A stretch of 64,000 nt of DNA from a virus (taxonomy: Duplodnaviria; Caudoviricetes). The position numbers and the translations under genes were made by a program. A model generated the notes under the pieces. It saw only the letters and a list, made by a program, of their open reading frames with translations, was not told the origin of the DNA and searched no databases. How positions within the stretch are numbered: the first letter of the stretch is position 1; the number at the start of each line of letters is the position of its first letter. The stretch is taken from the IMG/VR virus record IMGVR_UViG_3300031801_001562; one strand, written 5' to 3'. Below are positions 50,825 to 64,000 of this stretch, piece after piece.

Positions 50825-51508
50825 TTAACTCATTAAAGATCTACACCCAGCTAAAAACTCTCTACGACATTCACCGTCTTCGAATTGTCCCGATGCTGAA
50901 AGTGTGGCTGTTGAAGATCGAAGATCTTGTATGCCTCGAGATTTAACACAAAAATGTAGTCCATCAATTTGAACAGCTACGTCTTCTGTTTTAGCAACAA
51001 ATGCAATTGTTGCGCGCACTTGTTCTGTTAATCTTTCTTGAACTTGAGGTCTTTTGGAAAAGAATTGAACTATTCGATTTAATTTTGAAAGTCCTAAAAC
51101 ATAATCATTAGGAATATATGCTACAGATGCTACTCCATCAATAACAATAAAATGATGTTCACAATATGATTGAACATTTATATTTCTTTCAAGAACAAAA
51201 GAACCCCTATAATTCATTGAATTTTTAATTTGTGTACATTTTGGAAATCTGTCATAATCTAAACCCCAAAAAATTTCATTAACATACATTTGAGCAACTC
51301 TTTCTGGAGTATCTCGTAAAGAATCATCTTTAAGATCTAAACCTAATTCAAACATAATATTTTTAACATTGTTTTGAATCTTTTCAATAGCTTCTTCAGA
51401 ATTAAATTCATCTCGAACTCGTGACATGGGTGTTTCTAATCCTAAAGAAAGTAAATGCTCATTCACTTTTCGACCCAACTCTGGATCGCATTTTCTACGT
51501 ACTTCCAT
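50825..51508 (-). CDS. folE: GTP cyclohydrolase I
   Basis: DDSLRDTPERVAQMY, SYCEHHF, GLSKLNRIV.FFSKRPQVQERLT, HFCVKSRG. Confidence 0.97.
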   Translation of the reverse strand: MEVRRKCDPELGRKVNEHLLSLGLETPMSRVRDEFNSEEAIEKIQNNVKNIMFELGLDLKDDSLRDTPERVAQMYVNEIFWGLDYDRFPKCTQIKNSMNYRGSFVLERNINVQSYCEHHFIVIDGVASVAYIPNDYVLGLSKLNRIVQFFSKRPQVQERLTEQVRATIAFVAKTEDVAVQIDGLHFCVKSRGIQDLRSSTATLSASGQFEDGECRREFLAGCRSLMS

Positions 51509-51818: not shown

Positions 51819-52330
51819 TAACTGTGCTCCAGATATTTAACGCCGTCTCGTTCTTCGAGAAGTTTTCTATTTTTCATATGTTCTGCTTCAATTTCTTCTT
51901 TACTTCCGCCAAAATAGCCAACGGCATAACCATTTTCGCACATCCATTTGTTTACATTGGTCCAACCATTCCATTCATCGCCGGTGGCAGTGCAGTTGAT
52001 CCAGAGTTCTCCAAGAATTCTTCCGAATTTACCTCTACTGTCTTTCTCTGGACATCGACATTGGATTTCAATATCATCCCTGTCCGACACAATTGCCCAA
52101 TGTACCCACGATTTAAGGGCGGCCGAGGAGAGTTTTCCGTAAAACTTTTCTGCCAAATCACGAGTTCTTGATTCTGGTGTATCGATTCCCAACAAACGGA
52201 TTCGTCCACAATACCTAACATCGAACCCCAAATCAATAACTGCATCAATAGTATCTCCATCTACAACCTTCTCTACTGCAGTTATGTGGTAAATGAACTC
52301 GCAGGGGTTATCATTTTTATATTCGGCCAT
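51818..52330 (-). CDS. Thermonuclease (SNase-like) family nuclease
   Basis: KVVDGDTIDAVIDLGF, RIRLLGIDTPESRT, GKFGRILG, N..M...GYA..Y.G. Confidence 0.9.
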   Translation of the reverse strand: MAEYKNDNPCEFIYHITAVEKVVDGDTIDAVIDLGFDVRYCGRIRLLGIDTPESRTRDLAEKFYGKLSSAALKSWVHWAIVSDRDDIEIQCRCPEKDSRGKFGRILGELWINCTATGDEWNGWTNVNKWMCENGYAVGYFGGSKEEIEAEHMKNRKLLEERDGVKYLEHS

Positions 52331-52348
52331 AATTTTCCTTCTTCAAAT

Positions 52349-52537
52349 TTTGTGGCTGACCGTGCTTCTGTTCCCAAGTGACGGCCACAACTCGGCTATA
52401 GTCTACGCAGCGAGTGCGTAAGAGTATGCAGTATAATCGTCATTGTTTGCGATTAGTTTGATGGACCGTTACGGTGGTGCCTCTACCGAATACCTCTATA
52501 TCTACCTTCACAATCAATCGAAATCTATTTCAGCCCC
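52349..52537 (-). ncRNA. ssrA: Two-piece tmRNA, coding piece (5' acceptor strand plus tag reading frame)
   Basis: Starts GGGGCTGAAATAGATTTCGA at 52537; tag frame 52450-52403 = ANNDDYTAYSYALAA-stop; 3' TTGTGGC/GCCACAA pairing; 3' boundary approximate. Confidence 0.92.
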
Positions 52538-52538
52538 A

Positions 52539-52631
52539 TCAACGAAAGTCATATCCAATAAAAAGTGTGGCATAAGTTAAACCCAATGCAAGTATTATAA
52601 TTATTGCTAACCACATTAATTTCTTTTCCAT
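52539..52631 (-). CDS. 30-aa transmembrane peptide inside the tmRNA intervening sequence (MEKKLMWLAIIIILALGLTYATLFIGYDFR)
   Basis: ATG 52631, TGA 52539-52541, one base before tmRNA G1; purine-rich AAGAAAG upstream; clear TM profile. Confidence 0.6.
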   Translation of the reverse strand: MEKKLMWLAIIIILALGLTYATLFIGYDFR

Positions 52632-52640
52632 AACTTTCTT

Positions 52641-52700
52641 TGGTGGAGCTGATCGGAATCGCACCGATGTCTTAACTGTTATCTAGATATGTCAACAGTA
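52641..52700 (-). ncRNA. ssrA: Two-piece tmRNA, acceptor piece (T-arm and CCA end)
   Basis: ATCGG-TGCGATT-CCGAT T-arm, then CAGCTCC-A-CCA ending at 52641; pairs with GGGGCTG including G3.U; ATATCTA/TAGATAT and ACAGTTAA/TTGATTGT P2 pairing; 5' boundary approximate. Confidence 0.92.
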
Positions 52701-53351
52701 TCATCTGTATTTATTAACCCATGGAACTCTCACAGAAATATCCCTTTTTTCAGATATTCCGGTTGATTGGCCCTTATTAAAAAGAACTATAGGATAATCC
52801 AATTCTTCGTAATTAGAAAAATGTGCTGAATAATAAAAATTATCTGGTATACGAATAGGGTCTAATCTTTTCATCCAAAGATAAGTATCAAAGCCACCAT
52901 ATTTTTCTATATCTTCAAATTCAAATCTTTCCCAAATTTTTAAACTCGTATCTGGTCTCCATCCTAATATTGAAGAATTATATGGAGTACATAATATATC
53001 CCTATTTCTTTGATCTTCGAAATCATCCATATGTTCTCTCCAACGAGCCCATGGCGCACATAAATAATCTTGTTTTTCTACCCAATCAAATAAACTATCT
53101 ATATTACCTTTTATTACAACATCTAAATCAAATGCTAAAACAACATCTTCTGTAAACTGTTCTATTATTGGTGAATGATATAAAACTTTGGTCCACCATT
53201 TAGGAAGAATCGGTTCATCAAATACACGAAAATTTATATTATAAGTAGTATTTTTAAATACCATTTTTTCTAAACGTTGTATATCTTTTATAGTGTATTT
53301 GTCTCCTACACATATGCAGGCAACAGCTCTTCGCATAAAATTCATCGCCAT
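52701..53351 (-). CDS. Glycosyltransferase-like protein (GT-A, DxD)
   Basis: VGDKY...RL..MV, WWTKV, LAFDLDVVIKGNID, NSSILGW. Confidence 0.7.
   Translation of the reverse strand: MAMNFMRRAVACICVGDKYTIKDIQRLEKMVFKNTTYNINFRVFDEPILPKWWTKVLYHSPIIEQFTEDVVLAFDLDVVIKGNIDSLFDWVEKQDYLCAPWARWREHMDDFEDQRNRDILCTPYNSSILGWRPDTSLKIWERFEFEDIEKYGGFDTYLWMKRLDPIRIPDNFYYSAHFSNYEELDYPIVLFNKGQSTGISEKRDISVRVPWVNKYR
52706..52714 (-). promoter_or_regulatory. T4-type late promoter (ATAAATACA) just upstream of tmRNA
   Basis: Same 9-mer as at 6424 and 9335. Confidence 0.65.
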
Positions 53352-54034
53352 TGGCCTATAACCATAAATCGTTTATAATTACCAAAATCTTTTTCTCCTT
53401 TATACCATATATTTTTTATTTGATTTTTTTCAGTTAATTCTTCAACATCCTTTACACAATTTATATGATCCGTTAAATCAATATAATCATTAGATTGTAA
53501 ACAAACAAAAGGATTTCCTTTAAAAGAAAATTGATTTGTAAAATCTTGCATGTGCTCACAAGATGTACAGATAATTAAATGTCTTCTTCTAAGTTCTTTT
53601 CTTTCGAAATAATCATCATGTTGAATTACTTTATATTTTGGATTAAAAATATTTTTATATTGAGCCATTACTTTTTGACAAACTTCGTCTGGATCATATA
53701 AATCAATTTGAGTTATTCTTCCTTTAGTGAACCTGTCAATTAATTCTATCAGGGGCCAACCAAACCAAGATCCAATTATTTCTATTAGAAGAGGATAATC
53801 CCAATCCGGATTACCATCAGGAAATCTAATACTTTCAGAAGAATCTTTTGAATATTTTTTAATATTATCAGGAGTAGTTATTCTTAAATCATTTAAAATA
53901 TCACACATCCATTTTTTAGATTCATATTGATCATCAGATATAGAATCATCAAAACTTTTTTCATATTCAGAATGATTATTTTTTATAAATTTCTGAACAG
54001 TATAATATGGTGAATTTCTAAAATTTTCTACCAT
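53342..54034 (-). CDS. SAM-dependent methyltransferase-like protein (paralog 1)
   Basis: QYESK.W, IEIIGSWFG, IDLYDPD, IICTSCEHM, LQSNDY, RFMVIG; Rossmann-like pattern. Confidence 0.6.
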   Translation of the reverse strand: MVENFRNSPYYTVQKFIKNNHSEYEKSFDDSISDDQYESKKWMCDILNDLRITTPDNIKKYSKDSSESIRFPDGNPDWDYPLLIEIIGSWFGWPLIELIDRFTKGRITQIDLYDPDEVCQKVMAQYKNIFNPKYKVIQHDDYFERKELRRRHLIICTSCEHMQDFTNQFSFKGNPFVCLQSNDYIDLTDHINCVKDVEELTEKNQIKNIWYKGEKDFGNYKRFMVIGQWR

Positions 54035-54888
54035 CTACCTACCACCATAAAACGCTTATAATAACCAAAGTCTTTTTCTCCTTTATACATAATATCTGAG
54101 ATTCCATTTTTCTCTGCTAATTCATTTGCACTCTCAACACAATTTTCATGTTCTGGTAAATCTATATAATCATTACTTTGTAAAACATAAATTGGTTTGG
54201 GAGTATCTTTATAATATTCTTTCATCTCGCCAATATCAGGCATATGTTCACATGAAGTACAAATTATCATGTGTCTGATTCTTTTATCATTTCTTTCAAA
54301 GTAATCACCAAATTGATTTATATTATAAGACGGTTCAAAATGATACTTATATTTTTGAACTACTTCTTGACATACTTCATCTGGGTCGTATAAATCAATT
54401 TGTTCAATCTGGACAATAGTATCTTCTAACATTTCTATTAATGGCCATCCAAACCATGCTCCAACAATTTCAATTTTAAAAGAATCCTTGCTCCCGAAAA
54501 GTTCAGGTTTTAAAATTTGACACATCCATCTTTTAGATTCATATTGCCCATCAGTAATAGAATCTAAAAGGTTTGAAGCATATTCTGGATAAGATTCATC
54601 TAAGAATCTTTTAACTTTCATATATGGAGACCATTCCATAGTATTATTATAATTTACTTCATCTTTTTCAAATTGCCCCAAAGTTCTTTCCCATTCACCT
54701 TTAGTTCTTTCCCATTCAATCGCATTCCGGCGTTTTTCGGTTGCACGTCTTGCATCTTCCTTGTCCCATTGTCCTGAAGTTTTTTCCCATAAACCTTCAC
54801 AACGTTGCCATTCAATATTAGCTGCGCGTCTATCTCTTTGGAGAATTTTTAAATCAATTTCCGCTTTTTTAAAATCTTTTATGAACAT
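54028..54888 (-). CDS. SAM-dependent methyltransferase-like protein (paralog 2) with N-terminal Trp-heptad extension
   Basis: Same blocks as 53342..54034 (QYESKRWMC, IEIVGAWFGWPLIE, IDLYDPDEVCQ, ICTSCEHM, LQSNDYIDL). Confidence 0.6.
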   Translation of the reverse strand: MFIKDFKKAEIDLKILQRDRRAANIEWQRCEGLWEKTSGQWDKEDARRATEKRRNAIEWERTKGEWERTLGQFEKDEVNYNNTMEWSPYMKVKRFLDESYPEYASNLLDSITDGQYESKRWMCQILKPELFGSKDSFKIEIVGAWFGWPLIEMLEDTIVQIEQIDLYDPDEVCQEVVQKYKYHFEPSYNINQFGDYFERNDKRIRHMIICTSCEHMPDIGEMKEYYKDTPKPIYVLQSNDYIDLPEHENCVESANELAEKNGISDIMYKGEKDFGYYKRFMVVGRW

Positions 54889-55493
54889 CCTACCACTATT
54901 GAATATTTAACTTTTTGAAAATCATATTCTTCTTCAAATAAAACATCATTCAAATTATTCTGCTCTATTAATTGTTGGGTTGACATCACGGGATTGCATG
55001 AATATAAACGTTGTCTATTATTCCCGGCTAAAATGAATTTTCCCTTATGTACTTTACCGATAGGATATGTATCTTCACAAAATTTGTGAATAATGGGCCC
55101 CTTAAATTTTATATCATCGAATATAACATCTGTGCAATAAATGTTATCACTTATGAGTTCACAATCTTCACATACATAAGGATCTGAATCATAATATGAT
55201 ATATTATAACCTAATTTTTCTATTTTATCAACATGATAATTCATATACCAAGAACAGACGATATTCAAATCATCTTCATCAAAAAATTGAGTAATTAAAG
55301 AATGAATCTTATCATTTAAAACAATATTATATCGATTATTGGCTGAACCTAAATTATGTCGTCTATTTTCCAGTGTACTATACCACAAAGTATCGTATGC
55401 ATTTTCCGTTCCATATTTTGAAATAGAAGCAGCGAACTTTTCAAATTCTATCATAACTGCTCCACATGTCAAGAGCCCAACCTTTTGCTTCAT
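54879..55493 (-). CDS. Divergent member of the same methyltransferase-like family
   Basis: IVCSWY, ISYYDSDP, C-terminal N.V.....L...N....V.F...........VVG parallels the two paralogs. Confidence 0.45.
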   Translation of the reverse strand: MKQKVGLLTCGAVMIEFEKFAASISKYGTENAYDTLWYSTLENRRHNLGSANNRYNIVLNDKIHSLITQFFDEDDLNIVCSWYMNYHVDKIEKLGYNISYYDSDPYVCEDCELISDNIYCTDVIFDDIKFKGPIIHKFCEDTYPIGKVHKGKFILAGNNRQRLYSCNPVMSTQQLIEQNNLNDVLFEEEYDFQKVKYSIVVGCS

Positions 55494-56196
55494 GCAACTC
55501 TACATGAGTTTCATTAGGTTTCGCCCATTTTTTATGAGAAGTATTAAAAAGACATATCTTATAATCAGATCTATATTCTGTTGGATTTAAATCATCTGAA
55601 TATTTACAACCTATATTATAATTATATACATTTCCTGGTAACCAAAAATCTAAATTATTTTTTCTATGTTCCTGATAAAACAAATATTTGTCATATGAGG
55701 GATATGTAAAGAAAGCCTTTTCCTTATTTCTAACTAGCCTCTCATACATATCAAATCCAACATCGTCCTGCCAGGAAACAAAAGAAGAATTAATCGGAGT
55801 CGTCATATATCCATAATTAATTTTTGCCGCTTCATTGTTTCTCCAATAATTCCAAATATAAGTTACCTTATTCTTTTTTCTGTCTACTAGATCGGTTATA
55901 TTATTTTGAATTAAGATATCTAAATCAAACCAAGCCTTAGATCCGGAGACATGTTTATATCTATCGAAATAACACATCTTTTCGGATGTAAATATTTGTG
56001 TTCTTGGAAATTCGGAAAAATCATCTGGTATACTTTCTATTTTTATATCTGGATCTATACCAGTTGAATTATCAGTAAGACATGTAAAATTAAAAGGATT
56101 ATTATAATGTTTTTTAAGACTCTTGAAAAGCCTATTAACATATAATCTATTATACTTGGTTCCCCATTTCAAACAATAAAAATTTGTCATTTCCAT
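55441..56196 (-). CDS. Glycosyltransferase-like protein (GT-A, DxD)
   Basis: CLKWGTKY...YVNRL, FTCLTD, WFDLDILIQNNI, NSSFVSW. Confidence 0.72.
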   Translation of the reverse strand: MEMTNFYCLKWGTKYNRLYVNRLFKSLKKHYNNPFNFTCLTDNSTGIDPDIKIESIPDDFSEFPRTQIFTSEKMCYFDRYKHVSGSKAWFDLDILIQNNITDLVDRKKNKVTYIWNYWRNNEAAKINYGYMTTPINSSFVSWQDDVGFDMYERLVRNKEKAFFTYPSYDKYLFYQEHRKNNLDFWLPGNVYNYNIGCKYSDDLNPTEYRSDYKICLFNTSHKKWAKPNETHVELHEAKGWALDMWSSYDRI

Positions 56197-57227
56197 TGAT
56201 CTCTAAAAGCATCAAAACCTGATCCACACTTCTCAGCACATACTGTAGATTTACCATCTGCGCAAGAAGATATATTCCAACTTTTTTGTAATTTTTTAAA
56301 GAATCCACCTTCAATAATATTTCGAAGAGGTGTATGAAGTGCATTAATATCTTTTAAATCATCGAAATATGACCATATCTGATTTTCACCTATTTCTTGA
56401 TAAGCTTTATAAAATCTACCTGCTGTCCAACAACAGGGAGTTACTAAACCTTCAGCACTTATATATATTTCATTATTATCTAATGACTTACATGTGATTT
56501 TTGTTTGATCTAAATACTTTTGAAAGGAACCATGACTCTTAATCAATTTATCATAGCTGTTAACGCTCTTATTCTGATTTTCTGGATTAGTTGGTGGCTT
56601 AATCTCATTCCCCTTAGTGGTTATCTTTTTATCAACTTTCTTACCTTTATAGCTTTGTACCCACCTACCAGTTTTTTTTCTTACAAATTCGAGTCCGAAT
56701 AATTTAGCCATTCTTTCCGCTTCTTCGACTTGATGTTCATTATGTTCAAAAATTAAATATACCCAAATACCCTTACCGCCGGCTTGAGTAAATACATCCA
56801 TGGCATGTTCTACCTTTTTCCAATTTACATTAACTCGATATAAATGATTTGTATCTTCTAAGCCATCTACACTAAAAGTAACCTTTCCTCTAGATCCTAA
56901 TATTAAAACTAATTCTTTCCACCAATCATCATCTCTAGCTCCAGCATTTGTAGTCATATGAAGATACATTTTAGGATTATTAACTCTAAGATATCTAAAA
57001 ATGGAAAGCGTATCATTAGACACAAGTGGATCTCCATGATTACCACACATCAATAAAGAATTTAATTGATGAACAAAATCTATATCAACCATGCTCATGA
57101 AATTATTCAAAGATAATTCAGCATTTTTCATATGTCGATTATTTGTCCTGTCACACATCGGGCATTGTGCTTGACATCTTTGTGTTGGTTCTAAATGAAT
57201 ATGTTTTATTTGATCCGAAATATACAT
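56187..57227 (-). CDS. Radical SAM protein with C-terminal SPASM/twitch-like domain
   Basis: CQAQCPMC, MCGNHGDP, TNAG, FSVDGLEDTN..YR, C-terminal C..YISAEG.VTPCCW...C...CG. Confidence 0.92.
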   Translation of the reverse strand: MYISDQIKHIHLEPTQRCQAQCPMCDRTNNRHMKNAELSLNNFMSMVDIDFVHQLNSLLMCGNHGDPLVSNDTLSIFRYLRVNNPKMYLHMTTNAGARDDDWWKELVLILGSRGKVTFSVDGLEDTNHLYRVNVNWKKVEHAMDVFTQAGGKGIWVYLIFEHNEHQVEEAERMAKLFGLEFVRKKTGRWVQSYKGKKVDKKITTKGNEIKPPTNPENQNKSVNSYDKLIKSHGSFQKYLDQTKITCKSLDNNEIYISAEGLVTPCCWTAGRFYKAYQEIGENQIWSYFDDLKDINALHTPLRNIIEGGFFKKLQKSWNISSCADGKSTVCAEKCGSGFDAFRDQWK

Positions 57228-58346
57228 TTAATAAAAACTTTCAAACTCTGGCCACTCATTAAGTAAATTAGTTTTATTTCTTTTATCACATAATTTAAGA
57301 AAATTCATTCCTTCTATAAAAATATTATTATCAACCGGAATATTTAATTTTAATAAATTTTTTATATCATCAGAAATATATCTTTGATTTTTGCCTTGAT
57401 ATAATTTTTTCACTCCGTTTGGCAAACAATCTATTGTAAAATAACCGGGAACAACTAATAAATTTGATAATGGTGATAATATATTAAAATTCTCTTTTAA
57501 ATAAATTTGTATCTCATCTAAGTAACCAACATTTAATGTTTGAACCGTAACTTCAAATCCTATAGGATATGTTGATTGTAATTTTTTAATATTCTCGATC
57601 TTTTTTTTCCAAACAGTTCCGGTTCTAATATATTCTTCTTTTTTATCAATCCCATCTATAGAAATATTAAAATATAATTTTTTAAATGCTTTTTTATATT
57701 GAAATAAATGTCCGGGAATTTTTGTGGCGTTAGTAAGAGTAGATATTTTTATTTTTTTTGAAAATCCATGACCGATAAGCCACTCTAAAAAATCATAATA
57801 TCCATCAGTCATTAACGGTTCGCCGCCCGAAATAATTATTCTTGTTACAGAAGGTAAAATCTCTTTTAAATCTTCATAAGTTTTTTTATTAAAAGTATTT
57901 TCATATATTGGCCATTCTCCTTCATTATATTTCTCCTTATGTTGCGACCAGGCGGACGAAGATTGTGGACCGCACATCAAACATTTGAGATTACATAAAT
58001 TTCCAAATTTAATTTTAAAGGTTGGGTTATTGGGAATTAATTTTTTGCCTTGTTTAAATTTTTCTACTTGTCCCGCATAATCATTCTTTAAACTTTCTTT
58101 TCTTCTGGAATTCAATCCGAGATCTTCTCGTTTCCAACAGGATTGACAAATATCTAATCTTTTATTTTCTAAAAAAGCTTTTCTTTTATCGTTGATATAA
58201 TCAGAATTAAAATATTCTAAAATAGAATACTTATCACTGAACATTTTAGATTCACCTAGATTATCACAGCATAATTGATATTCATTGAATGAAGAAACAG
58301 TAAATTGTGTAAAAGGGAGAGCGCAGAAATTTTTTAATTTTTCCAT
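57228..58346 (-). CDS. Radical SAM protein with N-terminal twitch-like domain
   Basis: FCALPF..CCD..CQSCW N-terminus; GNLCNLKCLMC; SGGEPL; TNAT; SIDG. Confidence 0.92.
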   Translation of the reverse strand: MEKLKNFCALPFTQFTVSSFNEYQLCCDNLGESKMFSDKYSILEYFNSDYINDKRKAFLENKRLDICQSCWKREDLGLNSRRKESLKNDYAGQVEKFKQGKKLIPNNPTFKIKFGNLCNLKCLMCGPQSSSAWSQHKEKYNEGEWPIYENTFNKKTYEDLKEILPSVTRIIISGGEPLMTDGYYDFLEWLIGHGFSKKIKISTLTNATKIPGHLFQYKKAFKKLYFNISIDGIDKKEEYIRTGTVWKKKIENIKKLQSTYPIGFEVTVQTLNVGYLDEIQIYLKENFNILSPLSNLLVVPGYFTIDCLPNGVKKLYQGKNQRYISDDIKNLLKLNIPVDNNIFIEGMNFLKLCDKRNKTNLLNEWPEFESFY

Positions 58347-59374
58347 AGAGGAAATTTATTTTCAGGTTTTCTTTTTGGAATTTTACTATCTGCAGAACTT
58401 ACACAATTATCAGTTATACAAGGCATGAGCTTATCAAATAATTTAAATCCGGTTTCAATATTTCCTAGAGGTACATCTGAGCAAGAATATGACCGCTTAA
58501 TGCTCCCACAAGGCTCGCGTATAATAATACTACGATACCCCGACGAACAGATCCAGCCTTTGAATTCATTAAAATTAAACGCATTAAATCTCTCAGCTTG
58601 ATCCACTTCATATATATTTCCTTTTGAATCTACTAAATCTATTTCACGTTCTGTTGGTCTGGAATCATTATGTAAAATATCTAACTGTCCTTGTGTATAT
58701 CCATCTACAACTTTTGTAGCTGTCGGATTTGATTGTGGTTTTAGTGTTGTGTGTATACCACGATCTTTAAAATATAAAACATGTTCTGTTAGTTCCCAAA
58801 ATCTTTCTGGAATCATCACCATATTAATTGTTATTCTAATTCCATTATCTTGAAGAAAAACTAACTTATCAGCAAAATCTGCTATCTTATCTTGTGTATT
58901 TAAAGCTTCAAAATGTGCGGAAGCAGTAATAGAAGCCTTATCAAATTTATTCGCGTATTTAATATATGTTTCAAACCATTTTATTTTACGAGAACAATTT
59001 GAAGTCATATGTATGCGCTGACGATTACAATTATCTTCATCATCTGCTAGGTGTTGTAGTATATCCAAATAGCCGGGATGAAAGGTCGGCTCTCCTCCGG
59101 ATAAAGACCAATTGAAAGAATTAAATCCTTGTTTTCTTGCTTGTTTTTTTATGCTATCAATTGTCTTAATACAAAGTTCAGTTGGTCTATGATCTTTTTT
59201 ATCTGATCTAGCATACGGCCAACAATAGGAACATTTGTAATTACAAAATCTACCTAACAACCAAGATATTGTAAACGTATCTCGATACAACATTGTTTTA
59301 GTACCGAGAGCTTCAATATCCTTCCATGGTATTTTTGTAAAATCTTCTTCATTGCGTCGCATGAACAAAATCAA
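58334..59374 (-). CDS. Radical SAM protein with C-terminal Cys-rich auxiliary domain
   Basis: WLLGRFCNYKCSYC, SGGEPTFHP, TSN; C-terminal FKGWIC...SC...PC...C..SAD..IPK. Confidence 0.92.
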   Translation of the reverse strand: MILFMRRNEEDFTKIPWKDIEALGTKTMLYRDTFTISWLLGRFCNYKCSYCWPYARSDKKDHRPTELCIKTIDSIKKQARKQGFNSFNWSLSGGEPTFHPGYLDILQHLADDEDNCNRQRIHMTSNCSRKIKWFETYIKYANKFDKASITASAHFEALNTQDKIADFADKLVFLQDNGIRITINMVMIPERFWELTEHVLYFKDRGIHTTLKPQSNPTATKVVDGYTQGQLDILHNDSRPTEREIDLVDSKGNIYEVDQAERFNAFNFNEFKGWICSSGYRSIIIREPCGSIKRSYSCSDVPLGNIETGFKLFDKLMPCITDNCVSSADSKIPKRKPENKFPLWKN

Positions 59375-60260
59375 ATTGTTTAGGTGTATAATTCATTAAA
59401 TTCATTTCATTATCCATATCCCATAAAGGGGCTGTCAATGTGTGAACATTTTCAAATTTTCCTTTAAATCTTGCATACACCTTTGTTATTAATTCTTCAT
59501 ACTTTGGCAAATACATAATTTTAATTTTACAAGGTAAATTTACTTCTTCACAAAATCGTTCTAATTTATTAATATACCTATCATTAATAAATTCTGGATG
59601 TATTGAAAAATTTATTAATGAAAGTTTATTTAATTCTTTTAAATAGGATACTTGCTTGGTGCCGTTAGTTAAAGTCCAAATTGTCGCTTCGGGTACTTTT
59701 TCTTTTAACCATTTTACAAAATCTATATAATGAGGAATAAGAGTTGGTTCTCCTCCTGAAATAGTTATTTTTTTAACATTTAAGGGATTAACTTTGGTCC
59801 AGGCTTCTTGCATTCTCTCCAAGGAAGTCCAGGAGCCTTTATAATCATGGCTACGAGGGTCACAATAAGTGCAGCTGAAATTACACCTACGATCAGTATA
59901 ATAATCAACGGCAACACCAACATCACTCGTAACAGCGTAAATTTTATCATGGGGTTCCAACTTTCCTTTTAGTCTCATATTGTCTATCATTAATAAATGA
60001 TCTTCAGTCCGACCTTTTGGCATCGCTATATCAGTACCACAAAAACAATTTTCATTAGGACATACTATTGTTTTAGGTTCTGTATATTCATCTATTGAAA
60101 CTGGATAAGGTGTCCTACATACCGCAGTGCCTACCTCCCACCATGCAGCATCAATAATATAATTCGTTTGTTTACAATGCCATCCTTTAAAATTAGTTCT
60201 ATTTTTAATAGTTTGATCATCACAAGATTTTAAACCATGGTCGGTTAAAACTTTAAGCAT
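59349..60260 (-). CDS. Radical SAM protein with N-terminal Cys-rich auxiliary domain
   Basis: N-terminal FKGWHC...VC...VCP..NCFCGTD..MPK; RRCNFSCTYC; SGGEPTL; LTNGT. Confidence 0.92.
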   Translation of the reverse strand: MLKVLTDHGLKSCDDQTIKNRTNFKGWHCKQTNYIIDAAWWEVGTAVCRTPYPVSIDEYTEPKTIVCPNENCFCGTDIAMPKGRTEDHLLMIDNMRLKGKLEPHDKIYAVTSDVGVAVDYYTDRRCNFSCTYCDPRSHDYKGSWTSLERMQEAWTKVNPLNVKKITISGGEPTLIPHYIDFVKWLKEKVPEATIWTLTNGTKQVSYLKELNKLSLINFSIHPEFINDRYINKLERFCEEVNLPCKIKIMYLPKYEELITKVYARFKGKFENVHTLTAPLWDMDNEMNLMNYTPKQFDFVHATQ

Positions 60261-61267
60261 TTAGAGACCTCGTAATATATTTCTTCACATTTATTTGGAA
60301 GATAATCCCTTTTATTCATCCAGTTAATTAATTTAATGCAATAATTTTTATCGAATACATTTGTCTTTAAGAAATTTATTATTTCTTTCTGTAAAAAATT
60401 ATTATTATTATTTATTATAATATCTTTTACGCTAGAAGGTAAATAAGATGCGTTTAACCATTCTGGTGCATCTAAAAAATCATATGATATAGTATTATTG
60501 GTTATCCCTTTTGATTCTATCCACTTAATCGTATCAGTTAAGTCTGTGCTATTAAGGGTATGAAAGACGTAATGAGGTATTACGAAAAAATACTTTAATT
60601 GTTTATCAAAATTTCTTTCAAATCGAGACCATTTAGTTCCATATCTAACGAATTCCGCTACATCACCAATTCCGTCAATACTAACATTATAATTCAAACT
60701 CTTGAATCTGGTAAGATATTCTCTCCATTTTTCATTTGGGAAAATAGAATTATTTGTAACAATCATTAAATTAATATTTTCAATTTTAAGAGTATTAAAC
60801 AATTCTAAATACAGTGGATCCATAAATGGCTCACCACCAAGAATTTTTAAATCTTCTAACTCACTTAAATCTAAATCTGGTAATGAATTTTTATGTAATT
60901 TTCCACCAATTGCCGAACTGAATTTGGAATTACAACCCATGCATTTAAAATTACATAAATTGGAAGCGGAAAATTCTAATTCCTTTATTTTTGGATTTTG
61001 AATATATTTTTTATCATATTTGCTATTGAAATTTTTGCGATAACTAGGTTTGCCTATTTCGTCATCTCTGTAACATTTTTCGCAACCCTCAATCCATTCA
61101 TCTTTAAGCATTTTTGATCTAAGGTCTATATTTTCAGGACCATTAAATGCCTGAAATAGACTATCATATTTTGGATAAATTCTTTTATCAAAAATGCAAC
61201 ATGGATTTATTTCTCCAGACGGATTCAATTGTATATGAGTAAAGGGCGCCATGCAAAAATGTTTCAT
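60245..61267 (-). CDS. Radical SAM protein with N-terminal twitch-like domain
   Basis: FCMAPF..GEINPCC..GCEKCY; SNLCNFKCMGC; LGGEPF; VTNNS; SIDG. Confidence 0.92.
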   Translation of the reverse strand: MKHFCMAPFTHIQLNPSGEINPCCIFDKRIYPKYDSLFQAFNGPENIDLRSKMLKDEWIEGCEKCYRDDEIGKPSYRKNFNSKYDKKYIQNPKIKELEFSASNLCNFKCMGCNSKFSSAIGGKLHKNSLPDLDLSELEDLKILGGEPFMDPLYLELFNTLKIENINLMIVTNNSIFPNEKWREYLTRFKSLNYNVSIDGIGDVAEFVRYGTKWSRFERNFDKQLKYFFVIPHYVFHTLNSTDLTDTIKWIESKGITNNTISYDFLDAPEWLNASYLPSSVKDIIINNNNNFLQKEIINFLKTNVFDKNYCIKLINWMNKRDYLPNKCEEIYYEVSKCLKF

Positions 61268-62667
61268 TTTACGCGGACCAATTCATTATGTTCATCTATT
61301 TGATAATTTTGAAAATAGTCATTGAAATTTTGATTCCATATCATATCGGATTTTTTTCTATAAATTAAAAATCTATTATATTCATGGTATCGGGGTTTAA
61401 AGCTTTTAATATATTTAACTATGCGATGTAGTTTTTCCAGAGTCTGTTCATGCTTTACCCAATACATGTGTCCGGTTTTTTCGGAAACTCTGTCTATAGG
61501 TTTATCAAAATATGATTTAATTAGTTCCTCTGTTTTTTCTATATCTTTCATTGTTTCTTTTTCAAAATCTAATAATATCAATGAAGGGTCTAAATATTTT
61601 GGGGACTGCACTATGGATATATTCACAGATGCTTGCAAACTTATAAAAGATTCAAATACATCATAAATGTCCAGCATTTGATATATTGATGTTGTACATG
61701 TAATATCCAACCAGGTATAATCATTATATTCTCTAAATTTTTTAATATTTTTTTCTAATTGATCCCATGTTCCACCATTCCTAAAATAAGAATAAAATGT
61801 CCTGCCGGCATCAACCGATATTGTAATGGTAGAGGTATTAAATGGTAATAATAATTCAGATAATTTAACAACATCAAAATCAGAATTAAAATTAGAATGG
61901 AAACTAAGATGTATATTAGAAGCATTAGGGTGATCAGCTAACTTTTTTAATACTGGAAGAAATTGTTTTTGATATAAAAGTTCTCCACCTGCAAAATTAA
62001 TATGTTCCAGATAAGGAAAATTTTCATTCAAATCATCGACTATTTGCAAAGCTTGCTGGACAGTCAGAGACATTTCATAATCATCATTATCATCATGCCT
62101 ATGCTCGGTTCCTAATAGTTGTTTTAAATCGTATAGGTGTGTTTCTTCATCTGGTATAAAATTTTGAAGCTTCTTTGACCACCCGGAAGAAAATACTTTA
62201 GAACAATGTATACAAGCGAAATTGCAAGCATTACTAAATCTAAGTTCTATATGCCTTAACCCTTCATTTCTCACATAATGAGTTTTTGGATCATAACATT
62301 TTATTAAAAGATGTTCATCCGGACAATGTTCTTTATGAAATTTTTCATAAAATTGAACAGTATATATGTTAGCGTCTTTGGGAGGTTTTCCCTGATCCTT
62401 ATAAAAACTGCCATTCTTTTCTAAAGTAAAATCCTGTCTCATAGAAGGGACACCAACCGCTTCCATTGATTCGCAAGTATCACACCCTTTAGGCCATTCA
62501 TCATTGTGAAGTTTTCTTCTCAACTCTTTAAAATTTTCATGATTATAAATTTCCGAAGGTAAAAAAGTATCTTTTTGGAAAACTAATTGATCTGCCTGCC
62601 TTGGACAACAAGAAACAGTTCCGTTTTTATAATTTATTCCACCCATTGCATAAAAACATTGTTTCAT
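61264..62667 (-). CDS. Radical SAM protein with N-terminal twitch-like domain
   Basis: QCFY..SCCP..GCDTC; SNACNFACIHC; AGGE; SVDAG. Confidence 0.9.
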   Translation of the reverse strand: MKQCFYAMGGINYKNGTVSCCPRQADQLVFQKDTFLPSEIYNHENFKELRRKLHNDEWPKGCDTCESMEAVGVPSMRQDFTLEKNGSFYKDQGKPPKDANIYTVQFYEKFHKEHCPDEHLLIKCYDPKTHYVRNEGLRHIELRFSNACNFACIHCSKVFSSGWSKKLQNFIPDEETHLYDLKQLLGTEHRHDDNDDYEMSLTVQQALQIVDDLNENFPYLEHINFAGGELLYQKQFLPVLKKLADHPNASNIHLSFHSNFNSDFDVVKLSELLLPFNTSTITISVDAGRTFYSYFRNGGTWDQLEKNIKKFREYNDYTWLDITCTTSIYQMLDIYDVFESFISLQASVNISIVQSPKYLDPSLILLDFEKETMKDIEKTEELIKSYFDKPIDRVSEKTGHMYWVKHEQTLEKLHRIVKYIKSFKPRYHEYNRFLIYRKKSDMIWNQNFNDYFQNYQIDEHNELVRVK

Positions 62668-62668
62668 A

Positions 62669-63595
62669 TCATATCTCCTTATCTATAAAAATATCTCTTT
62701 TTTTAACTTTACAAGTATCCCAACATTTTTCTACTGGTGAGGGCCACGACCAAGATTTTTGTATAAGATCAAACATTTCACCATCAATAACTTCTGATAT
62801 AGTATTATATTTTAAATTGTTTGCTAAAATTCCTCCGGAGCCAGTCCAAATTTTTCCAAATTTAGTTTTTCCTTTTCTGGTAGCGGCTATTTCCAAAGCC
62901 TCGGAATTTAAATAACAACAAGGTAGCAATGCTCCGGTATGATTTATAAATAATCTTTTTTGATTACCATATTTACATTGAATTTCTTTTTCTTCTTCCA
63001 CTTCTTTTTTTACCTCTCCACTTCCTCCTCTATGAGAAAATATTGCTCTGAATCTTTTAAACCCTTCCTCTTCCGACATTCTTTCTGCATCATCAAATAA
63101 GTGCTCGTTATGGTCAAACACAATAAACTGCCAAGTTGCATTGCCTCCTGCTCCTATAAAGGCTCTCCAATTTTCTTGCACTTTTTTAAAATTAGAACCG
63201 ATTCGATATTTTACTAATGATTCCTGATCTGTTCCATCTAATCCAAAAAATACTGAGGTCCCTAGTTCACCCAACTCCTTCCAAAATTCTTTTGTTTTGG
63301 TAGACCCATTAGATGCAATATTAACATCTGTAAAAGATTTAAAATGTCTTACAATTTTTAATATATCTGGATGAAGGGTGGGCTCATCTACGGAACCACA
63401 AAAATTTAATAATTTAAGATTAGGAAATTCTTTAGAGGTAATCCATCTTTTAAGATCTTCAAAATCAATAATATTTTTATTTAAAATAGATTCAACTTGC
63501 TCTTTCTTTTCTTGCCTAAGACAACCGGGGCATGCTATATTACAAAAGCTAGTTAATTCTACATCAATCCATTCAATTGTTTTATTATTCCACAT
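62669..63595 (-). CDS. Radical SAM protein with C-terminal SPASM/twitch-like domain
   Basis: ELTSFCNIACPGC, FCGSVDEP, SNG, FGLDGTD..YRIG, C-terminal C..LFINHTG.LLPCCY..C..TC. Confidence 0.92.
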   Translation of the reverse strand: MWNNKTIEWIDVELTSFCNIACPGCLRQEKKEQVESILNKNIIDFEDLKRWITSKEFPNLKLLNFCGSVDEPTLHPDILKIVRHFKSFTDVNIASNGSTKTKEFWKELGELGTSVFFGLDGTDQESLVKYRIGSNFKKVQENWRAFIGAGGNATWQFIVFDHNEHLFDDAERMSEEEGFKRFRAIFSHRGGSGEVKKEVEEEKEIQCKYGNQKRLFINHTGALLPCCYLNSEALEIAATRKGKTKFGKIWTGSGGILANNLKYNTISEVIDGEMFDLIQKSWSWPSPVEKCWDTCKVKKRDIFIDKEI

Positions 63596-63998
63596 TTTTT
63601 ATAACCGCTCGCTTTCCATCATCACCGCAAGTAAGATAACATCTGGGGATATGAAGAGGGTGCATATTATTCCAACTTTCTTTTAATGTTGTTTTATACC
63701 ATTCGCTTTCTAAAATTTCTTCTATAGAATGTTTTTTTAAATTATTAAAATTATGACCTATATTAGTAAATAAATTTTCTATATCTTTAGTTTTATTAGC
63801 AACTTGCTCATCATACAAATGACAACACGGCCATAATCTTCTATTTACTCCAATAAATATTTCACCTTTTATTTTATGACGACAAGCGATTCTGGCTTCT
63901 TCATAATTTTTTTCTCTAGCTCTTTTTTCAACATCCTCATATGTTTCAGAATCTATTTCCTTTGCCACTCTCGATTTTATTTTAGCAAATTTAGAATT
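63585..63998 (-). CDS. C-terminal SPASM/twitch-like part of a further radical SAM gene, truncated by the window edge
   Basis: Frame stays open from 63968 to the window end (NSKFAKIKSRVAKE...); C..K.EIFI....LWPCCH...RC..TCG as in 56187 and 62669. Confidence 0.75.
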   Translation of the reverse strand, partial: NSKFAKIKSRVAKEIDSETYEDVEKRAREKNYEEARIACRHKIKGEIFIGVNRRLWPCCHLYDEQVANKTKDIENLFTNIGHNFNNLKKHSIEEILESEWYKTTLKESWNNMHPLHIPRCYLTCGDDGKRAVIKNVE

Positions 63999-64000
63999 AT

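Follow-up and report, generated by a model that had tools for sequence, protein, structure and literature searches.

A permuted, two-piece tmRNA gene with an ORF-bearing spacer in the DNA of an uncultured marine T4-like myophage

The stretch of viral DNA analysed here, 64,000 nucleotides long and referred to as the window, very probably carries a functional, phage-encoded tmRNA (ssrA) gene of the alpha type, which is split into two pieces and belongs to an uncultured marine T4-like myophage. The anatomy of the gene, its conservation and covariation among relatives, and one RNA 5' end at the first base of its coding piece (G1) are observed. In addition, the spacer between the two pieces contains a short open reading frame (ORF), and on comparison of the spacers of relatives we lean slightly towards a dual-purpose precursor, in which the discarded spacer would be a stem-closed mini-mRNA for a membrane peptide of 30 amino acids, with translation limited by folding, and would act as an exchangeable cargo slot.

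The gene is recognized by two covariance models of Rfam. RF04321 (tmRNA_permuted) aligns over its full model positions 1-213 with 52702-52403 (-) at 110.6 bits (gathering 47; E 1.1e-20), and RF01849 (alpha_tmRNA), which is the model kept by clan competition, aligns with 52758-52357 (-) at 61.8 bits (gathering 50); all helices of the tRNA-like domain are present in the match. An earlier note, made from the letters of the sequence, had proposed a permuted two-piece tmRNA in a phage, and these scores, together with the T4-type genes of the window, bear this out; the best covariance match to the locus is a tmRNA and not another class of RNA. By the measure of RF01849, the best model of its clan, the gene is alpha-type, a result in favour of its having originated in Alphaproteobacteria; which host the phage has is a separate question. 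The interval given at first, 52349-52700, covers the same gene, but the true extent is 52702-52357 (-). In the RF01849 alignment, approximately 40 model positions after the tag are absent and leave a gap, the region after the tag being shorter here than in the alpha model.

On the minus strand the order is permuted, as had been read from the letters: the T-arm, the 3' strand of the acceptor stem and CCA come first, and the 5' end, GGGG..., follows on the far side of the spacer (Table 1). The acceptor stem of 7 bp is formed by GGGGCUG and CAGCUCC, is flanked by discriminator A and includes the G3.U pair that had been noticed before. The pairing of P2 helices across the pieces was likewise found, in the form of four helical segments (5+4+3+3 bp) which tie both pieces together; their 5' strands GAUAC, UAUC, CAG and UAA lie in the acceptor piece, and their 3' strands follow GGGGCUG in the coding piece. 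The MFE fold of 52486-52702 recovers the P2 helices, the T-arm and the acceptor stem (z -2.7). The coding piece also contains the pseudoknot region and the tag frame, upstream of which UAAUC matches the usual U-A at -5/-4. Translation of this frame gives the very peptide that the earlier note had reported, with a hydrophobic C-terminus, ALAA, that ends in AA. The sequence of the T-loop was also read correctly, UGCGAUU in the Rfam alignment, with a G where canonical T-loops carry U, which was counted against a functional tmRNA.

Table 1. Positions of the tmRNA gene parts and neighbouring features in the window
Feature	Position	Strand	Basis
Acceptor piece, the 3' part of the mature tmRNA	52641-52702	(-)	Rfam alignment
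T-arm AUCGG/CCGAU, 5 bp, with 7-nt loop UGCGAUU	52668-52652	(-)	Rfam alignment
Acceptor 3' strand CAGCUCC	52651-52645	(-)	Rfam alignment
Discriminator A	52644	(-)	Rfam alignment
Encoded CCA	52643-52641	(-)	Rfam alignment
Spacer (IVS), 103 nt	52538-52640	(-)	Insert in Rfam alignment
30-codon ORF in spacer, MEKKLMWLAIIIILALGLTYATLFIGYDFR*, predicted membrane peptide	52539-52631	(-)	Reading frame, conservation in relatives
Coding piece, the 5' part of the mature tmRNA	52357-52537	(-)	RF04321 and RF01849 alignments
Acceptor 5' strand GGGGCUG, G1 = 52537	52537-52531	(-)	Rfam alignment
Tag frame, resume codon GCA, peptide ANNDDYTAYSYALAA, stop UAG	52403-52450	(-)	Translation
3' hairpin with conserved loop CUUGGGAACAGAAG	52388-52352	(-)	Alignment of relatives, pairing-keeping changes
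T4-type late-promoter-like motif AATAAATA	52708-52715	(-)	Read from sequence; motif end 5 nt ahead of the gene's first base
SNase-like endonuclease, 170 aa	51818-52330	(-)	PHROG 452 E 1.4e-31, Pfam SNase E 1.9e-10

The gene is conserved well beyond the window. A pattern of the 5' signature of the coding piece matched 112 viral contig stretches in IMG/VR, and more than 100 IMG/VR relatives show covariation; 104 relatives were extracted, and covariation was counted on 75 distinct spliced genes. All 75 of these distinct relatives share an unaltered acceptor stem with its G3.U pair, and pairing of the T-arm and of one P2 segment is kept in 75/75, with double-sided changes. The T-arm variants among relatives are AUCGG/CCGAU, GCCGG/CCGGC, GCGAG/CUCGC and AUGGG/CCCAU. 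Pair counts for the outer P2 helices, PK1 and the 3' hairpin were discarded, as MAFFT had misaligned their columns between subfamilies. Downstream of the tag, only the terminal hairpin (52388-52352) is backed by changes among relatives that preserve pairing (alignment A1), the MAFFT columns elsewhere in that region being unreliable. The tags of the relatives, as called by ARAGORN, vary around ANN[DSN]DY...ALAA.

ARAGORN itself, which had been suggested as a check on the gene, called no tmRNA gene in the window and would have wrongly failed a real one. When run on the 104 relatives, it called 59 and missed 45; the genes missed include 8/8 with GGGGCAG-type T-loops and 33/57 with the T-arm of the window. 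Its silence on the window is a false negative of the program and not evidence against the gene, and censuses of phage tmRNAs that are based on ARAGORN run low.

The carrier is AT-rich (30-38% G+C), with coding almost entirely on the minus strand, which encodes T4-type head-closure/neck, sheath-stabiliser, baseplate-wedge, hub, tube-cap and tail proteins. The nearest isolate phages are HTVC008M and Mosig of SAR11 and Melnitz of OM43, with an amino-acid identity of 21-24% in structural proteins, and a blastn search with the tmRNA gene found no DNA similarity to any isolate among 50,697 phage records. From the T4-type genes, the distant marine isolates and the absence of a DNA match, it follows that the window is DNA of an uncultured marine T4-like myophage, with the pelagimyophages and the OM43 phage Melnitz as distant kin. 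Within this phage DNA the tmRNA gene sits between packed phage genes, and all its relatives are IMG/VR viral contigs. The first gene downstream, which is co-oriented, encodes the SNase-like endonuclease (Table 1), and in 36 of the 92 relatives that could be evaluated, an SNase-like gene follows the tmRNA in the same orientation, no more than 1.5 kb downstream. This gene order suggests that the tmRNA and the nuclease may form a module tying message cleavage to ribosome rescue. Farther along the window, a GTP cyclohydrolase I gene (50825-51508, -) stands two genes downstream of the tmRNA, and a run of radical-SAM genes begins upstream of it (52701-64000, -; scored at 56187-58346 and 61264-63595).

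Although integration into tmRNA genes is common and prophages with ssrA fragments are known (PMC9004378), it is very unlikely that the gene is a mere passenger, in the sense of a decaying host ssrA picked up by chance, for example via an integration site. The gene is complete and tightly packed among phage genes, a promoter-like motif is conserved in front of it, and the ORFs of the window that were scanned yielded no integrase. Moreover, it is conserved with compensatory changes in more than 100 viral contigs, and 401 sampled alphaproteobacterial genomes share only T-arm/acceptor DNA with it, which argues for an old phage lineage.

As the earlier note had observed, SmpB is absent from the window (an HMM of four SmpB sequences gave a best E of 1.2 on six-frame translations); SmpB (PF01668) is also absent in five related viral contigs, including a 134.5-kb record rated 100% complete, and tblastn returned no ClpP homologue in the window. 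Since neither SmpB nor ClpP is present in the window, and SmpB is missing from the complete relative, the phage probably depends on host partners; judging from the gene content of the window, it would have to use the SmpB, AlaRS, RNase P and proteases of its host, whose compatibility is assumed here. Some relatives encode ClpP, and in one tmRNA-bearing contig (L140) a ClpP homologue is located ~2 kb away.

The lack of a phage SmpB and the non-canonical T-loop would also fit an RNA that acts as a decoy or modulator, titrating host SmpB or AlaRS or re-routing tagged proteins and thereby redirecting host trans-translation; a tmRNA-like domain in phage DS6A and a similar tmRNA-inhibiting molecule have been cited (PMC4131195, PMC11915505). 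This we regard as improbable, given that the full tag frame with its resume codon, ALAA end and stop is kept in relatives, unlike in DS6A, which would be unexpected for a pure decoy. A functional tmRNA remains the preferred reading, and its alpha type bears on the origin of the gene. The earlier note had gone further and inferred a likely alphaproteobacterial host. Such a host is plausible, but Melnitz, whose ssrA is alpha-type as well, infects a gammaproteobacterium (PMC9004378), and a DNA search of 401 sampled genomes of Alphaproteobacteria returned no full match but only matches of 26-44 nt, corresponding to T-arm/acceptor or chance pieces. By analogy with the relatives and from base composition a SAR11-like host is plausible as well. 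The 5' signature of the phage-type tmRNA is also carried by five MAG contigs (Pseudomonadales, Hyphomicrobium, Chloroflexota, Bacteroidota and Acidimicrobiaceae; L228-L232). These were rejected as pointers to hosts, as they come from unrelated phyla and are probably mis-binned phage contigs. The Hyphomicrobium MAG also holds its own, different alpha tmRNA.

RNA from the locus is represented in RNA-library contigs of three studies, which together cover 52351-52713; these are assembled metatranscriptome contigs, mostly from relatives, in which DNA carry-over is possible. One contig (depth 8.9), from an oligo-dT SMART-type library, ends at 52537 and continues with CCCGTACTCTGCGTTGATACC, which we take to be the reverse complement of the end of the SMART template-switch oligo, GGTATCAACGCAGAGTACGGG. 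This junction places the 5' end of an RNA at G1, where RNase P is predicted to cut, and as a single contig it is modest evidence; being joined to the template-switch oligo, it excludes DNA carry-over at that one junction only. The RNA contigs give no cover at 52300-52350 and 52725-52800, and since they come from relatives with unlike flanks, the missing flank cover says nothing about the ends of the transcript. A single low-depth joint that skips 52544-52639 in X18 probably stems from a relative with a short spacer.

Upstream of the gene lies the T4-type late-promoter-like motif (Table 1), and TAAATA recurs at the same fixed upstream distance in 31 of 48 distinct relative flanks versus 4 of 984 control windows. 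Neither a sigma-70-type promoter nor an intrinsic terminator was found in 52200-52900. Transcription would be driven by the late T4-type promoter just upstream or by read-through from upstream genes, and the next gene would be co-transcribed.

The spacer that separates the two pieces is itself organized like a small gene. A purine-rich, SD-like AAAGAAAG follows directly after CCA, ahead of the ORF, whose TGA stop lies 1 nt before G1. In relatives, this ORF is represented by 32 distinct DNAs which encode 28 distinct peptides with zero stops or indels; its pN/pS is 0.39, versus 0.71 and 1.72 in the other two frames, and its variable sites by codon position 1/2/3 number 18/15/23. These values argue for purifying selection on the ORF. 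In database searches, tblastn with two spacer peptides found nothing among the 50,697 phage records, and ten spacer peptides were assigned to no family in PHROGs. For the 30-aa peptide, the ESM Atlas offers a YoaK-like small membrane protein (0.84), which is a weak lead below the level at which it would count.

Relatives differ in what this slot contains. Spacers of 13-42 nt have no ORF (28/104 relatives), spacers of 103 nt hold the peptide of the window (51/104), those of 96-114 nt encode other, apparently unrelated single-helix peptides, and those of 176-229 nt encode basic peptides of 50-59 aa with C-terminal NWDxDLWD. Besides empty forms, the slot is seen with one basic family of 50-59 aa and with no fewer than six membrane-peptide families that are unrelated to each other, and the cargo class shifts at least 24 times on the tree of the spliced tmRNA. 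The basic family amounts to 167 protein clusters; it occurs in the spacers of two tmRNA subtypes and also free-standing, behind its own TATAAATA, in other phage contigs, which shows that the spacer cargo consists of real genes. In the contigs L258-L264, the free-standing NWDKDLWD gene is found at 1501-1680 behind TATAAATA, ~300 nt upstream of ClpP (~2002-2589), and Rfam reported no tmRNA in L258 and L264. The K-[DN]-W-D-K-D-L-W-D of the basic peptides (L135:1366-1530) resembles, by eye, the K-R-D-W-x-R-E-K of the SmpB tail, which is a lead only.

The conserved spacer ORF and the other small genes in the slot of relatives could be taken to mean that the locus is mainly a small-protein gene, in which the membrane peptide is selected and the tmRNA provides a structured platform for its expression and processing. 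The MEKK peptide, the family of the window, would fit with this, as it occurs in this collection only within tmRNA spacers, once in a different tmRNA subtype. The chance that this reading is correct is nonetheless very small: the 28 of 104 relatives with ORF-less spacers of 13-42 nt keep the whole tmRNA, and the closest relatives, L116 (6180-6520) and L214, have lost the core of the ORF by a 61-nt deletion, corresponding to window 52554-52614, with a tmRNA that is still 97-98% identical. As ORF-less and ORF-deleted relatives keep the whole tmRNA, the tmRNA is selected on its own. In the same two relatives the nuclease gene is farther from the tmRNA, owing to ~216 nt of additional sequence between them.

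With the tmRNA as the selected product, the spacer is also of structural interest, since its ends pair with each other and extend the acceptor stem. The MFE fold contains a 10-bp helix between GAAAGUUAUG and UAUGACUUUC, and in every class with an ORF the SD/AUG end is complementary to the last 10-14 nt of the spacer. Across 55 distinct long spacers, the energy of the end duplex has a mean z of -2.7 versus shuffles, and 76% lie below -1.64. The paired ends differ by class, with compensatory changes, namely GUUAUG/UAUGAC, UCAUAUG/CAUAUGA, GCAUAUG/CAUAUGC and ACUAUGAG/CUCGUAGU, and in one contig of the window's class (L167) a G-C pair has changed to A-U via the synonymous change of GAC to GAU. 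The last bases of the spacer, UUGAU, are conserved in ORF-less spacers too and therefore belong to the tmRNA leader. The closing helix may be needed for the halves of the acceptor stem to meet across a long insert.

For the processing enzymes, the charging, the tagging, the timing of expression and the translation of the spacer ORF, we infer the following course from these observations. While the precursor is being made, the SD/AUG of the spacer would stay accessible just as long as the complementary 3' end of the spacer has yet to be transcribed, allowing brief translation before folding and maturation. Closure of the helix would then lengthen the acceptor stem and leave the RNA committed to RNase P cleavage and 3' maturation. 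CAGCUCC-A-CCA, with which the acceptor piece ends, would pair with GGGGCUG at the start of the coding piece, with the four P2 segments holding the pieces together; host RNase P would cleave before G1 (52537), and host tRNA 3'-end enzymes would trim to CCA (52641), so that the 103-nt spacer is released and two base-paired RNAs remain. The G3.U pair would let host AlaRS charge the RNA, which together with host SmpB could enter ribosomes stalled on broken messages. After addition of ANNDDYTAYSYALAA, the C-terminal LAA would send the product to ClpXP-type proteases, and the ribosome would be freed. The likely benefit would lie late in infection, when nucleases of both host and phage may be truncating many mRNAs: ribosomes and amino acids, which are scarce, would be kept available.

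Two-piece tmRNAs of phages as such are already known. A two-piece ssrA has been reported in Melnitz, Mosig and HTVC008M, and the two-piece phage tmRNAs counted so far number 53 in isolate genomes and 17 among 47 Melnitz-like contigs (Buchholz et al. 2022, PMC9004378). These three isolates resemble the phage of the window in having a permuted alpha-type tmRNA, in being marine T4-like (Kyanoviridae-like) myophages and in lacking SmpB, and RF04321 matches their genes at 90-113 bits. The Melnitz tag, ANDNYVPVDYALAA, resembles that of the window, and Melnitz has TATAAATA just upstream of ssrA, in the same place as AATAAATA here. In contrast to the loci of the isolate phages, the window gave no glutamine riboswitch that reaches the gathering score in Rfam, and the neighbour of the tmRNA is an SNase-like nuclease rather than the late-transcription coactivator of Melnitz and Mosig. 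The spacers also differ: the window has a clean 30-codon ORF, whereas the spacers of Mosig and HTVC008M are short and that of Melnitz, ~130 nt long, has an unannotated ORF which runs past G1 into the coding piece. In Melnitz-3 (L233:585-1037; MZ577098.1 45984-46436), the spacer is closed by AAACACUU and AAGUGUUU, and GGAG is followed by ATG; the GenBank record of Melnitz lists no CDS in the spacer, and the locus tags _87 and _88 are missing from the feature table at that place.

Among bacteria, the two-piece tmRNA of Alphaproteobacteria (Caulobacter; Keiler, Shapiro and Williams 2000) is alike in its order, its split tRNA-like domain, its G3.U, its encoded CCA and its AA-ended tag. The gene of the window differs from bacterial tmRNAs of Alphaproteobacteria in its carrier, a lytic-type phage, in its long, stem-closed and ORF-bearing spacer and in its shorter post-tag region, and its sequence resembles those of the 401 sampled alphaproteobacterial genomes over ~30 nt only. 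The tmRNAs of mycobacteriophages (Bxz1 group) and of Bacillus phage G are likewise phage-borne and use host SmpB, but are in one piece and not permuted, and the DS6A RNA has a tmRNA-like domain only, with no tag frame, unlike the permuted gene with a complete tag frame described here (PMC4131195). An ORF within an excised stretch of a stable RNA is also known from the intervening sequences of 23S rRNA with S23p ORFs (Coxiella, Leptospira; PMC4990558). There, the stable RNA and the excision enzymes are others, and the Coxiella S23p protein is suggested not to be made in vivo; the ORF described here, in contrast, shows purifying selection, and its slot holds several unrelated small genes. A tmRNA database paper of 2025 mentions intervening sequences that contain a tRNA gene or a repeat element; the term ORF is absent from it (PMC11915505). 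Full-text literature searches returned no paper on protein genes in tmRNA spacers, and relative to the literature searched, the protein-coding, stem-closed spacer proposed here would be new.

The tmRNA gene adds one uncultured lineage to the marine phages that bring their own ribosome-rescue RNA. If the spacer peptide is made, the precursor of a stable RNA would double as a messenger, with its translation limited by its own fold and with a slot that is reused by phages. The annotation of permuted tmRNA genes, in which the spacer is now treated as non-coding, would then have to change, and the locus would offer a simple system for the competition between translation and the folding and processing of RNA.
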